DNA of 64,000 bases from Eledone cirrhosa (taxonomy: Eukaryota). The stretch spans positions 47,306,001 to 47,370,000 of the forward strand of contig OZ024743.1 of NCBI GenBank assembly GCA_964016885.1, in the 5' to 3' direction. Positions 806-61,964 of this stretch are shown one piece after another. Within the stretch, counting starts at the first letter, position 1; each line of letters opens with the position of its first letter. A program made the position numbers and the translations under genes. The notes under the pieces were generated by a model that did no database searches, was not told where the DNA came from, and saw nothing but the letters and a program-made list of their open reading frames with translations.

Positions 806-864
806 CATATTACAATTGTTTCTATATTGGATCCCGACTCTTAATCGACACTTCTTCAGATATG
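806..864 (-). ncRNA. Type I hammerhead ribozyme motif (palindromic stem III) in fold-back PLE remnant ~680-1000
   Basis: Minus strand reads CATAT-CTGAAGA-[imperfect stem II]-GAAA-CAATTG-TA-ATATG; stem I CATAT/ATATG; arms 760-842 and 888-1000 are inverted copies. Confidence 0.65.
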
Positions 865-1001
865 AGAGTTTATATGGATGAACCCATCAAGAGTCGGGAT
901 CCGATCGCATGATCAAACCCGAGCTGATCGATATGGAAATAATTTGTAATATGTAATAAAGTTTACAAAAAGATGCAATTCTTATTGTCACTTTATATAT
1001 A

Positions 1002-1181
1002 GAGCGGTCGATTGGCAGAATCGTTAGAGGGTTGGACGCCATGCTTTGACGCATAGAGTTTTGGCCCTTTCCATTCTGAGTTCAAATCCCGCTGAGGTTA
1101 ACTTTACCTTTCATCCTTAGGGGGTCGATAAAATAAAGTACCAGTAATGCACTAGGTAATTGATGGCCTTGTGCCAAAAGT
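1002..1181 (+). mobile_element. tRNA-derived SINE, family A
   Basis: A-box-like TGGCAGAATCG, B-box GAGTTCAAATCCC, central CCTTTCATCCTTAGGGGGTCGATAAAATAAAGTACCAG domain, 3' GGCCTTGTGCCAAAAG. Confidence 0.9.
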
Positions 1182-1666
1182 GAGTGTGTGTGTGTGTGAG
1201 TGTGCGTGTGTGTGTGTATGTATGTATGTGTGTTGTGTGTGTGTGTGTGTGTGTGCAGTGTTTTAAAGAAAGAGGACGAATAAGATGTTAGTTAAGCAGT
1301 AAAATCATGTCATTTACTTATCAATAAATACCAAATGTCACTCAGTACGGATGTGCTGGGTGACAATACAAAGGGAGTTAAATGAAACTAAGGCAAGAGT
1401 AATATAGAGGAGGAATGACAGAGTAGAGGGGGGCAAGAGGAAGAGAAAGGGTGGGGGCTGATTAATATTATTTGTAGTGAGGCAAAAAATGTTTCAAGGA
1501 AATAAATACAAATTGCACTGGAATATAATTACAAAACAACATGACCAGATACAAACACACACACACACACATATACATACATTAATGTATACTTAAACAT
1601 ATATAAGTAAATATATATATATCAAGTATATATATGTGTGTGTGTGTGCATACGTAAACATAAATA

Positions 1667-1715
1667 TTTCAGAAGATCCCGTTAAGGGTAAAAGCAGCGA
1701 TTCTTTGCTTAAACT
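1667..1715 (+). ncRNA. Decayed copy of CAGAAGA-core hammerhead family (GAAA changed to AAAA)
   Basis: TTT-CAGAAGA-TCCC-GTTAA-GGGT-AAAA-GCA...TGC-TT-AAAC; near-identical to 13028-13079. Confidence 0.4.
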
Positions 1716-2059
1716 TTAATCTGTTATTTTAATAAATATTTGCTCTAGGGTTCTTATATATTTGATATATATTTATCCTTATCGGACCCTCTTTGAATTT
1801 TAGTCTTCACATTTATTATATTACTATAATATATATATATATATATATATATATATATATATATATTTGTTTTGCAAGGTTTTTTATATGAACTCGTGTG
1901 TCGAAACAAATATTATTATACTTGGAGAGGGTCATGTTGTAATATTATTTATGGCAATATTACAACAATATGACCCTCCCCAAGTATATATATATATATT
2001 TATTGAAAGTAGAATTAGAAGCTTTCACCGCATCCCTCTTAAGGTTTGGACTCTGGACT

Positions 2060-2215
2060 AAACTGGTATTTTCAGGATTAGGCTGGTACTTTTTAACGAG
2101 CTCAAAATGGTGAAAGGCAAAATTAACATCCGTTGGATTTGAACTCAGAGTACAATGAGTCTCCACAAATACCACAAATACCGACGTTTTAACGACTCTG
2201 CCAATTCGCCGCCAA
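2060..2215 (-). mobile_element. Diverged SINE family A copy
   Basis: Reverse complement of ctggtacttt...tgaaaggcaaa...ggatttgaactcag...ctctgccaattcgcc. Confidence 0.75.
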
Positions 2216-59300: not shown

Positions 59301-60227
59301 GTATCGGTAGAAGGTCTGACACCATGCTAGGGTGGTGGATTGGCAGTGTCGCTAGAAGGTCTGACGCCATGCTAGGGTGGTGGATTGACAGTATCGGTAG
59401 AAGGTCTGACACCATGCTAGGGTGGTGGATTGGCAGTGTCGGTAGAGGGTCTGACACCATGTTAGGGTGGTAGATTGGCAGTATCGGTAGAGGGTCTGAC
59501 ACCATGCTAGGGTGGTGGATTGGCAGTATCGGTAGAGGGTCTGACACCATGTTAGGGTGGTGGATTGGCAGTGTCGCTAGAGGGTCTGACACCATGTTAG
59601 GGTGGTGGATTGGCAGTGTCGGTAGAGGGTCTGACACCATGTTAGGGTGGTGGATTGGCAGTGTCGGTAGAGGGTCTGACACCATGTTAGGGTGGTGGAT
59701 TGGCAGTGTCGGTAGAGGGTCTGACACCATGCTAGGGTGGTGGATTGGCAGTATCGGTAGAGGGTCTGACACCATGTTAGGGTGGTGGATTGGCAGTATC
59801 GGTAGAAGGTCTGACACCATGCTAGGGTGGTGGATTGGCAGTGTCGGTAGAGGGTCTGACACCATGTTAGGGTGGTGGATTGGCAGTATCGGTAGAGGGT
59901 CTGACACCATGCTAGGGTGGTGGATTGGCAGTGTCGGTAGAGGGTCTGACACCATGTTAGGGTGGTGGATTGACAGTATCGGTAGAGGGTCTGACACCAT
60001 GTTAGGGTGGTGGATTGGCAGTGTCGGTAGAGGGTCTGACACCATGCTAGGGTGGTGGATTGGCAGTATCGGTAGAGGGTCTGACACCATGTTAGGGTGG
60101 TGGATTGGCAGTATCGGTAGAAGGTCTGACACCATGCTAGGGTGGTGGATTGGCAGTAACGGTAGAGGGTCTGACACCATGTTAGGGTGGTGGATTGGCA
60201 GTAACGGTAGAGGGTCTGACGCCATGT
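53345..60227 (+). repeat. 45-bp satellite (~153 copies) derived from the SINE A tRNA head (A-box)
   Basis: Unit gggtggtggattggcagtgtcggtagagggtctgacaccatgyta matches SINE 5' gggcggtggattggcagtatcggtagagggtcggacgccatgctt. Confidence 0.98.
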
Positions 60228-60380
60228 TTTGACGCATAGAGTTACGTCCCTTTATGGACTGAGTTCAAATCCCGCCGAGGTTAACTTTGCCTTTCATCCT
60301 TACGGGGTTGATAAAATAAAGTACCAGTAATGTACTGGGGTAATTGCTTGCCTTGTGCCAAAAGTAGAAACAATTAATAC
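60185..60380 (+). mobile_element. Complete SINE A body continuing from the last satellite unit
   Basis: B-box gagttcaaatccc, central domain and tail; ATTAGTAA at 53337-53344 and 60381-60388 brackets array plus SINE. Confidence 0.92.
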
Positions 60381-60844
60381 ATTAGTAAGAAAGAGGGAGT
60401 GGTTCAGTTGATATTACATGTCACACCTGGCCTTGTACCTATATAAGAAACCGATATTACATATCACACCTGGCCTTGTACCTAAATAAGAAACCGATAT
60501 TACATGTCACACCTTGTTAACTATGTTAACCAATTGACTATTGACATACGATATACATCAGGGATTATCCCCTCCCTGTCTTATCCCTATCACTATATCA
60601 TTGGCACCCGTTATCCCCTCCCTGTCTTACTCCTATCACTATATCATTGACACCCGTTTGTCTCCTCCCTGTCTTACCCCTATCACTATATCATTGACAC
60701 CCGTTTGTCTCCTACCTGTCTTACCCCTATCATTATATCATTGGCACCCGTTTGTCACAGCTTCAACACTTCCTACACTCCCACATAGGCACATATATAC
60801 TCACACTCACACATATATACTCACGCTCACACATATGTGTTGAT

Positions 60845-61760
60845 CTTAGCGACTGCGAGTTTCTTGAAAATCGGTCGTAAGGTGTAGCAAATGGCGAAAT
60901 GTTGAGTGAAATCGTATGGAATATGTGGGAGGTGGAAAAAATCGTATTTTGAAGAGTTAAACGGCTGCCATGCCGTCCATGAACAAAAAATGCAAAGTGT
61001 AAAGCTACTATAAGATGTGCAATGATAGGTTCTATCGTAGTATACAAGTTGAACCAAATAAATTGATTTATGTGTGAGGTATAGCCGAAGTTTCGAATTT
61101 GAACGAAATCGATTGAAAAATGTGGGAGCTAATGATAGGTTCTATCGTAGTATAAAAGTTGAACCAAATGAATTGATTTATGTGTGAGGTGGAGCCGAAG
61201 TTTCGAATTTGAACGAAATCGGTTGAAAAATGTGGGAGCTAGAGCCGAAAAGGCGGTATTTTCGAATATTTAAGCGGCTGCCACGCCGTTCTTGAAGACG
61301 AGAAATAATCAGATCTAGCGTAGTGTAAAATTTGAACAAAGTAGGTTGATTAATGTGGGAGCTAGAGCCGAAAAAGTGGAAATTTGAGTCTAAAAGTGGT
61401 ATTTTTTAATATTTAAGCGGCTGCCACGCCGTCTTTGAACAACAAACGCAAAATATAAAGCCATTACGGGATGTGCAATGATAAATTCTATTTTGCTTTA
61501 AAATTTGAACGAAATCGGTGGCAAAATGTGGGAGCTTGAGCCAAAAGTCTTATTTTTCAATACCTAAAAAAAGGTAACCCCCCTATCGATTTTTATCTGC
61601 AGAATGACCCCAGAATAAATAAAAACGATACGCTGATATATAGAAAACACTCCCCGATGAATCTATGCGCCTGTAAAATTTCATGAAAATCGGTCGTAAG
61701 ATGTAGGCCCCTATAGGTAATACACAGACACACACGTACATACTTAATTTTATATATATA
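60845..61760 (-). mobile_element. Helitron-like non-autonomous element with internal tandem duplications
   Basis: Minus strand starts tatatataaaa...gtgtgtctgt...accgattttcatgaaattt; repeated gaacgaaatcggttgaaaaatgtgggagct blocks; 3' CTAG end not seen. Confidence 0.5.
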
Positions 61761-61884
61761 CACACACACACACACACATATATATATATATATATATATA
61801 TATATATAAATGAGCGGAACAAGTAATCATCAAACAATCTTTTAAATAAATTAAAAAACGATTTAAATATTCACCTGTTCTAAT

Positions 61885-61964
61885 GCCGTTACCGACGGTT
61901 TCACTAATCAAAAGATTGGAAATTCAGAGAATTTCCAATGGAAAAAATTAGATCTTCAGACAGC
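61885..61964 (-). ncRNA. Type I hammerhead with extended stem II, canonical core
   Basis: GCTGT-CTGAAGA-TCTAATT..ATTGGAAATTC-tct-GAATTTCCAAT..GATTAGT-GAAA-CCG-t-CGG-TA-ACGGC. Confidence 0.8.

Follow-up and report, generated by a model that had tools for sequence, protein, structure and literature searches.

The hammerhead motifs scattered through a 64,000-nt stretch of the Eledone cirrhosa genome (GCA_964016885.1, OZ024743.1, 47,306,001 to 47,370,000, forward strand; hereafter the window) very probably represent type I hammerhead folds carried at the 3' ends of Penelope-like retroelements (PLEs), with six Hydra families, two Neptune-type families, one retrozyme-like family and three families of untraced origin. 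Truncated insertions most likely placed them in TA microsatellites, and their predicted self-cleavage would require dimers or the assistance of a protein. For eight of the 12 window families, six of the Hydra clade and two Neptune-type, longer copies in the genome continue collinearly into a PLE ORF. Most of the motif-bearing islands are therefore the 3' ends of autonomous PLEs, truncated on the 5' side and in many cases inverted. The preliminary description had regarded the islands as remnants of PLEs or as non-autonomous retrozyme-like derivatives of them. The former holds for these eight families, and the latter for only one of the 12 (61885); the link to a PLE ORF that it had proposed to seek for each family was not found for 806, 38384, 41921 and 61885. 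The predicted features of the window are the following.

47588..50815, minus strand: Hydra-clade PLE, 5'-truncated, flanked by (TA)n runs and carrying a pLTR copy in inverted orientation at its 5' end
49053..50595, minus strand: RT-then-GIY-YIG endonuclease ORF remnant in two frames, CxCX5C linker, CxxC/CxH
47629..47694, minus strand: Hydra-element 3' pLTR hammerhead of type I, in the same sense as the ORF
50620..50685, plus strand: identical-type hammerhead in the inverted 5' pLTR copy of the Hydra element
44772..47229, minus strand: second Hydra family, 3' UTR remnant plus an inverted copy, with fragments from other families nested inside
44915..44981, minus strand: type I hammerhead of the second Hydra family
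47120..47186, plus strand: second Hydra family, type I hammerhead of its inverted copy
37178..37243, plus strand: decayed hammerhead (U3 with G8) of a third Hydra family (parent copies L068, L270)
38384..38444, plus strand: intact hammerhead related to the above Hydra families (47629, 44915, 37178)
13028..13079, plus strand: CAGAAGA-core variant hammerhead from a Hydra family, with a U17 site and a long helix III
near 1671, 46432 and 46601: damaged copies of the 13028-family hammerhead
14737..14829, minus strand: long-helix-II (62 nt) hammerhead of a Hydra family, decayed copy (G8U)
near 6811-6883: half copy of the 14737-family hammerhead
37462..37554, minus strand: intact copy of the 14737-family long-helix-II hammerhead (parent copy L265)
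37856..37935, plus strand: Hydra-family hammerhead overlooked in the preliminary description
6688..6723, minus strand: minimal hammerhead, helix III ACGU, within a Neptune-type PLE 3' UTR
13340..13635, unstranded: two Neptune-type PLE 3' ends, inverted to each other to form a hairpin (inverted repeat I24)
13415..13452, minus strand: U3-A8 covariant-core hammerhead; inverted copy with shorter helix I at 13524
61808..62028, minus strand: truncated copy, between (TA)n runs, of a 467-nt non-coding tandem unit (retrozyme-like)
61885..61964, minus strand: the retrozyme-like unit's type I hammerhead, with a helix II of 50 nt
41921..41971, minus strand: hairpin-helix-III hammerhead of an abundant family
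806..864, minus strand: older-family hammerhead with helix II partly deleted; inverted partial copy to about 999

A strict type I hammerhead descriptor gave nine matches in the window and none in any of 30 shuffles, with both shuffle types, and a wider descriptor found 15 motifs against a mean of 0.2 and a maximum of 2 in 30 block shuffles. The wider descriptor was tuned after the variants of the window had been seen, and the independent test is therefore provided by 79 independent 10-kb stretches of the genome, where 80 motifs compare with 1-3 in six shuffles. The excess over shuffled sequence, which the preliminary description had proposed as a check, was thus evident at both scales. The 15 motifs comprise 14 of the 16 positions previously listed, together with 37856; the other two positions, 13524 and 46432, fail the wider descriptor and represent damaged copies of families that pass it. 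They form nine groups, close to the eight to ten families estimated before, or 12 families when the TATTTT(A/G)T group is divided by helix II and parent ORF. At least 28 hammerhead families occur in 2 Mb of the genome. The window density of 1 per 4.3 kb agrees with the earlier figure of one motif per 4 kb, while the genome mean is about half of this: the sampled stretches contain about 1 motif per 10 kb, which extrapolates to about 295,000 motifs in the genome (204,000-393,000). A (TA)5+ run lies within 250 nt on the 3' side of 14 of the 15 window motifs but on the 5' side of only seven, so that the supposed flanking by (TA)n is one-sided. The same preference was seen in the sample (3' side, 64/80, versus 31% of random positions; 5' side, 28/80).

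The Rfam search that had also been suggested returned no matches at the gathering score, either in the window or in 70 kb of motif-rich loci, and at E<=5 no hammerhead family was present among the 150 matches listed of 280. This failure reflects the scope of the models and says nothing on function; CUGANGA with a spacer of <=17 nt occurs in only 21 of the 80 sampled motifs. Pfam likewise assigned no family to five ORF fragments of the window, and the identification of PLEs came from homologues and motifs.

The catalytic core is retained across families although their stems differ. An intact core (CUGANGA or its U3-A8 covariant), as belongs to the CUGANGA...GAAA...NUH three-way junction open at helix I that characterizes type I, is present in 12 of the 15 window motifs; the other three are the decayed copies 14737 and 37178, and 13028, whose CAGAAGA core is shared throughout its family. 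Among 30 families, scanned with the core positions left free, the 3-8 pair is kept in 28 (25 C-G, 3 U-A) and position 17, also left free, is not G in 29; helix III is palindromic in 25, palindromes not having been demanded by the scan. The earlier assignment to type I hammerheads of PLE pLTRs with palindromic helix III, spread over many families, thus stands, except for the word "minimal", which applies among the window families only to 6688; many others have a long helix II. One very abundant family carries a U4A/U17 core variant family-wide. Helix III alone has no hairpin energy in 13 of the 15 window motifs, its self-duplexes range from -1.7 to -11.3 kcal/mol, and only one of ten monomers folds better than shuffles at z < -2.

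One parent ORF, of the Hydra clade, lies inside the window (49053-50595). The element containing it (47588..50815; inverted arms 47580-47725/50589-50734) is 98% identical over 3.0 kb to the full-length copy L274; in a full copy, hammerheads 3,856 nt apart enclose a 750-aa RT-endonuclease ORF. The preliminary description omitted this ORF between 47629 and 50620. Intact 750-aa frames with RWR, DKT, CxCX5C and CxxC/CxH, lacking CCHH, are encoded by L274-L276. The Hydra ORFs contain an RT with a C-terminal GIY-YIG domain, an arrangement expected of the clade, and its other traits, namely (TA)n insertion, pLTRs, inverted 5' copies and a tail, are all present; hammerhead-to-hammerhead distances of 3,856 and 3,867 nt exceed the size "generally under 3 kb". 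The latter is a typical trait of the clade, not a defining one. The second Hydra family (44772..47229) shows 94% identity over 1.4 kb to the 3' UTR of L264, which bears a Hydra ORF. In the 13028 family, which retains C3-G8 and U17 in 48 of 49 copies, the ORF is located about 1 kb upstream in L044, L261 and L262, and in the 37856 family 1.2 kb upstream in L330, itself collinear with L325 and L340. CxCX5C was read in four of five parent copies checked, the remaining copies being assigned to Hydra-type proteins by tblastn; the placement of the six families in the Hydra clade is one by motifs rather than by a tree against reference PLEs.

Two families are probably Neptune-type, as judged by motifs, the linker being common to Neptune and Nematis. 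Both have a C-terminal endonuclease, a CX2-5CxxC linker and CCHH. The 6688 motif lies in the 3' UTR of such a PLE (copies L235, L236, L240); in the 13415 family, with U3-A8 in all 23 copies, the ORF is located upstream in L271. The long-helix-II motifs were also considered as the missing Naiad ribozymes, which was rejected, since the endonuclease is C-terminal in all linked ORFs; an RT of Naiad type, preceded by an N-terminal GIY-YIG, was not recognised in about 2 Mb. An origin of the hammerheads from nearby LINE fragments (43850, 27284, 13888), which we take to be R4/Dong- or CRE-like, was rejected as well, as no family copy elsewhere joined such ORFs. No parent ORF was found for the 41921 family in 30 + 10 loci or for the 806 family in 30 loci, nor was one found for the 38384 family. 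A Hydra ORF beside L388 was rejected as the 41921 parent, being a separate element.

ORF-linked motifs have the same sense as the ORF and lie 0.2-2 kb downstream of its stop. Each family has two fixed 3' ends adjoining (TA)n (e.g., +29/+112, +79/+146 and +85/about +190 in different families), one of which follows the motif at a distance of tens to about 200 nt. No excess of 5' breakpoints was observed at the cleavage site (5/158 within 3 nt; neighbouring bins 1-13), and thus the cleaved RNA is not visibly the template. In two families, breakpoints seem to pile up at helix I's 5' edge, in part owing to query bias.

The 61885 family is the one retrozyme-like case. Head-to-tail units of 464-467 nt, with one type I hammerhead each, occur in 4 of 26 loci; the unit is non-coding (longest ATG frame 24 aa), has 34% GC and, as a circle, is strongly self-paired (-118 vs -85.8 +/- 5.1 kcal/mol, 50 shuffles), the z-score of the 61885..61964 hammerhead being -2.83. 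Most copies are, however, dispersed and truncated, with the two fixed 3' ends, inversions and TA adjacency of PLE insertions. A search of sequencing runs with the 467-nt unit yielded no RNA dataset among the matches listed. Taken together with a 311-nt tandem array in L077 and the shortness of most copies in all families, this family could suggest that the islands are mostly independent non-autonomous retrozymes amplified as small RNA circles. As a general account this is very unlikely: it is refuted for the eight families collinear with a PLE ORF, and only one of six families examined has regular head-to-tail units, besides one local 91-nt duplication.

It is also conceivable, though unlikely, that the motifs are PLE-borne and their fold acts as a protein-binding or reverse-transcription signal, with no cleavage in vivo. 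The absent breakpoint excess, the weak monomer folds, the occurrence of U4A and U17 in a very abundant family and the finding that, for an anole PLE, no RNA-seq reads ended at the site (PMC11167929) would fit such a role. Two published results also weigh against the main reading: metazoan PLE hammerheads showed poor cleavage in vitro (PMC4209133), and the anole PLE did not need cleavage in order to insert (PMC11167929). The change from C3-G8 to U3-A8 in three families and the avoidance of G17, however, are demands of catalysis, and the anole ribozyme cleaved once protein was added (PMC11167929). An explanation by chance, in DNA that is rich in AT and in repeats, is almost certainly wrong. The motif is short and degenerate, false matches are expected at about 2-3 per 790 kb, and 2 of the 30 motif clusters are false or out of register; nevertheless, the excess over shuffles is more than 30-fold, the families are multi-copy, and their strand and position are tied to PLE ORFs. 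The counts in the 79 stretches and the core analysis of 30 families refute this explanation.

For hammerheads carried in PLE 3' ends, published work on PLEs suggests the following scenario. The GIY-YIG domain would nick (TA)n, and reverse transcription would begin at two sites just 3' of the ribozyme, producing the "tail"; it would usually stop early and often leave an inverted second copy, so that the end deposited by each insertion would carry the ribozyme. Within tandem transcripts, the palindromic arms of two helices III would pair, and cleavage would release unit-length RNA of 3.86 kb or the 467-nt unit, which may circularise and be mobilised by the PLE protein. Dispersed single copies would be mostly passengers.

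The Hydra-clade PLEs (Craig et al., 2021, PMC8557442), which include Hydra-1_Obim of Octopus bimaculoides, share with the E. cirrhosa elements the C-terminal GIY-YIG, RW(K/R), DKT, CxCX5C and CxxC/CxH motifs, the absence of CCHH, (TA)n targets and, close to the 3' end, a hammerhead whose helix III is palindromic. They differ in being under 3 kb, compared with a 3.86-kb unit with a 1.4-kb 3' UTR here, and in their core-half spacing (3-7 bp stems and 3-10 nt loops in the Hydra rows of File S2; 31-62 nt here); many Hydra families at very high copy and one family with U4A and U17 further distinguish E. cirrhosa. The CX4CxxC linker, CCHH endonuclease, minimal helix III, U3-A8 covariant and single or opposite-strand motifs from truncated copies are shared with Neptune-type PLEs (Cervera and de la Pena, 2014, PMC4209133), for which about 2,000-9,000 motifs per genome were counted against the estimated 295,000 here, the descriptors differing and the figures not being like for like. 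The 61885 family resembles non-LTR retrozymes (Cervera and de la Pena, 2020, PMC7229834; Li et al., bioRxiv 10.64898/2026.07.22.740005) in its non-coding, low-GC head-to-tail units of a few hundred nucleotides with one type I hammerhead each and strong self-pairing, but differs from them in its PLE insertion anatomy and mostly dispersed truncated copies. Anolis Poseidon PAc (Frangieh et al., 2024, PMC11167929), although of a different clade, likewise has two 3' ends defining a tail, an AT-rich target and a pLTR hammerhead just upstream of the reverse-transcription start, and its insertion from uncleaved RNA agrees with the absent breakpoint excess. Its ORF starts within the ribozyme, rather than about 100 nt after the cleavage site, and its tails are 30-40 nt long, versus about 65-105 here.

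PLE hammerheads, (TA)n targeting by the Hydra clade and retrozymes have been published already, including an octopus Hydra family (PMC8557442), and the hammerhead-PLE mechanism is not new. New are the scale of the motifs, the helix II inserts of up to 88 nt, the family-wide U4A/U17 variant and the invisibility to Rfam. Rfam and short-helix descriptors miss most such motifs, and mollusc ribozyme counts may therefore be far too low. A bolder combination of claims, improbable as a whole, is that E. cirrhosa has among the densest loads of predicted self-cleaving ribozymes in animals, that the family-specific helix II inserts and U4A/U17 are adaptations to protein-assisted or inter-molecular cleavage, and that a still-active Hydra RT-endonuclease drives such cleavage and also moves the 467-nt retrozyme. 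If so, intronic copies would cut host pre-mRNAs when PLE RNA or protein is present, constituting a transposon-controlled layer of RNA processing. What PLE hammerheads do and which machinery mobilises animal retrozymes are questions left open in the cited papers; with young, intact Hydra-clade ORFs in copies 98% identical, PLE-type ends on a retrozyme and natural ribozyme variants by the dozen, E. cirrhosa brings both within reach of in vitro tests.

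A strict type I descriptor, used for the first scan of the window, yielded nine predicted hammerhead motifs against none in all shuffles. A wider descriptor, allowing a helix II of up to 90 nt, a minimal helix III and a few core variants, yielded 15, compared with an average of 0.2 and at most 2 in 30 block shuffles. Of the 16 positions listed in the preliminary description, 14 pass the wider descriptor; the remaining two, 13524 and 46432, fail it but are damaged copies of families that pass, and the motif at 37856 is additional to that list. Rfam gave no matches at gathering score in the window or in motif-rich genomic loci.

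Since the wider descriptor was tuned on the window, it was tried on a separate genome sample of 79 stretches of 10 kb at round-number positions, 44 of them on the four largest contigs. These contained 80 motifs, with 41 stretches empty, compared with one to three matches per shuffle (six shuffles). The density of 1.01 per 10 kb (bootstrap 0.71-1.34) extrapolates over the 3.0 Gb assembly, after background subtraction and from 0.03% of the genome, to about 295,000 motifs (204,000-393,000), a count that exceeds the number of insertions owing to inverted pairs and one six-copy array in the sample, and that at least one hammerhead family escapes. The rate of roughly one motif per 4 kb noted previously is particular to the window, at about twice the genome mean.

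Flanking by (TA)n, also proposed previously, holds for the 3' side, where 64 of the 80 sampled motifs, versus 31% of random positions, have a (TA)5+ run no more than 250 nt away, but not for the 5' side (only 28 of 80). The window also contains TA-flanked hairpin islands without a full hammerhead, at 1867-1984 (similar to the 3' end of another Penelope-like element, PLE), 3384-3481, 9369-9440, 14469-14658 (a family present in 16 of the 79 random stretches), 24110-24270 and 37987-38086 (the tail of the 13415 family). The number of TA islands that are PLE ends could far exceed the motif count. At five genomic loci (L047, L060, L080, L264, L289) the same TA tracts hold stacked ends of PLEs from different families, which suggests repeated insertion into earlier target sites.

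Between the hammerheads at 47629 and 50620 the window encodes a reverse transcriptase (RT) followed by a GIY-YIG domain. All 451 database homologues of this protein are PLE-type proteins, the best named one being from Argonauta hians; 131 scored genome matches, drawn from 63,903 candidates at first look (a figure that does not give the copy number), are 93-100% identical. Full copies at L274 and L275 carry a 750-aa ORF between two same-strand hammerheads spaced 3,856 and 3,867 nt apart, and their 98% identity indicates that this full-length family is young. The ORF contains RWR, DKT, CxCX5C, CxxC and CxH motifs and lacks CCHH, in agreement with the Hydra clade as described in the available passages of PMC8557442. 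Seven further families, named by the window start of their hammerhead, run upstream into PLE ORFs.

PLE ORFs upstream of window hammerhead families, with the genomic loci concerned
44915/47120 family: Hydra-type ORF, L264
37178 family: Hydra-type ORF, L068 and L270
13028 family: Hydra-type ORF, L044, L261 and L262
14737/37462 family: Hydra-type ORF, L265, collinear with L266
37856 family: Hydra-type ORF, L330, collinear with L325 and L340
6688 family: Neptune-type ORF (CX4CxxC linker, CCHH), L235, L236 and L240
13415 family: Neptune-type ORF (CX4CxxC linker, CCHH), L271

Window islands are 87-98% identical to the parent elements. Families terminate at either of two constant 3' positions (+29/+112, +79/+146 and +85/about +190 from the cleavage site are examples), and an inverted truncated copy is often attached; these are the known tail and inversion signatures of PLEs. 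Judged by sequence, eight of the 12 window families, being linked to PLE ORFs, are therefore remnants of autonomous PLEs. The preliminary description had offered remnants or non-autonomous retrozyme-like derivatives; the latter term fits one family only, 61885. For families 806, 38384 and 41921, the upstream search of genomic loci found no ORF.

The 61885 family runs on into its own tail rather than into an ORF, and forms head-to-tail units of 464-467 nt in four of 26 oriented loci (30 fetched). The unit has 34% GC, a longest ATG frame of 24 aa and a circular fold of -118 kcal/mol, versus -85.8 +/- 5.1 kcal/mol in 50 shuffles. Elsewhere, a tandem array of 311-nt units that each contain one hammerhead (L077, 6131-7900, G000:C9; four copies one way, two inverted) is a second retrozyme-like family.

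A relaxed rescan of the window and 379 loci, leaving core positions 3, 4, 7, 8 and 17 unconstrained, returned 589 matches, some counted twice where loci overlap; 477 fell into 30 clusters of at least three loci each, and 112 in smaller clusters were dropped. The 3-8 pair is kept in 28 clusters (25 C-G, 3 U-A); of the two exceptions, one is a U-A family read in a second register and the other is probably false. G17 is avoided in 29 clusters, and helix III is palindromic with at most one base unpaired in 25. Helix I and III pairs vary among families, pairing there being required by the scan. The 13028 family has a CAGAAGA core with U17 in 48 of 49 copies. Among the 80 sampled motifs, 28 have more than 30 nt between core halves and ten more than 50 nt, and only 21 combine CUGANGA with at most 17 nt.

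The position and strand of the motifs, their ORF linkage, the two 3' ends, the inversions, the 3' TA adjacency and the core conservation are the observed basis of a possible mechanism. By analogy with the available passages of PMC11167929, the PLE endonuclease would nick AT-rich DNA, reverse transcription would begin at two internal sites directly 3' of the ribozyme, ribozyme cleavage would depend on the PLE protein, and the main template would be uncleaved RNA. Cleaved RNA as template is disfavoured because only five of 158 incidental 5' breakpoints lie within 3 nt of the cleavage site, neighbouring bins holding 1-13. Early termination would leave a ribozyme-bearing end at every insertion, which may explain the high motif density; single copies would need no function. 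Helix III alone forms no hairpin in 13 of the 15 window motifs, and its duplex with another copy has an energy of -1.7 to -11.3 kcal/mol. Activity as monomers is disfavoured, since only one of ten monomer folds has z below -2. Tandem copies may pair via helix III to yield unit-length, possibly circular RNA, by analogy with the available parts of PMC4209133 and PMC6765202.

Several neighbouring repeats and atypical PLEs were also recorded. Minisatellites occupy about 14 kb of the window, with long arrays at 29700-35100, 51450-52800 and 53200-60260 and one 45-nt unit in about 150 copies. An abundant SINE presumably resembles octopus SINEs. Non-LTR retrotransposon fragments next to TA runs (43850-44377, 27284-27949, 13888-14526) are taken to be R4/Dong-like (RT and endonuclease) and CRE-like. 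A large inverted repeat at 22446-23108 is similar to the 3' UTR in L276, a Penelope/Poseidon-like element, and contains an atypical hammerhead-like stretch rejected by the scan. An abundant PLE with a C-terminal endonuclease (L268, 5069-7093 and 4459-4962; L280, L343, L377) has an unusually long, IFD-like span separating RT motifs A and B; its hammerhead, outside the reach of the scan, has a helix III that is not palindromic. Upstream of the hammerhead, the 13028 family (for example, at L199, L262 and window 46415-46436) carries a branch-point-like motif, a pyrimidine run and an AG whose end coincides exactly with the 5' arm of helix I; no spliced copies were evident among the family copies inspected. 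The Drosophila virilis Penelope intron reportedly has the same arrangement.

Much of this system has precedents in the available parts of the sources. An Octopus bimaculoides Hydra family that prefers (TA)n and carries a hammerhead is known (PMC8557442), likened to the present families by description rather than by consensus sequences. Truncated PLEs giving widespread single and opposite-strand motifs, the U3-A8 variant and about 2,000-9,000 motifs per genome were reported in PMC4209133, and PMC7229834 credits mussel with about 5,000 motifs and axolotl with as many as 120,000; a 2026 preprint argues that retrozymes derive from PLEs (bioRxiv 10.64898/2026.07.22.740005). The available passages of PMC3088659 note U3-A8, U4C and a U10.1-U11.1 mismatch, and U4A is absent from the variants there; a term search of the accessible text of a 2026 octopus repeat annotation (PMC13282606) did not return "ribozyme". 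A literature search, with subscription papers mostly outside its scope, found no genome-wide cephalopod hammerhead count. Schistosoma may have a similar hammerhead density, and published counts rest on narrower descriptors than the wider one used here; therefore no density record is claimed. Overall, this is a known system, real and well supported in Eledone cirrhosa, and unusual in its scale and in the shapes of its motifs.
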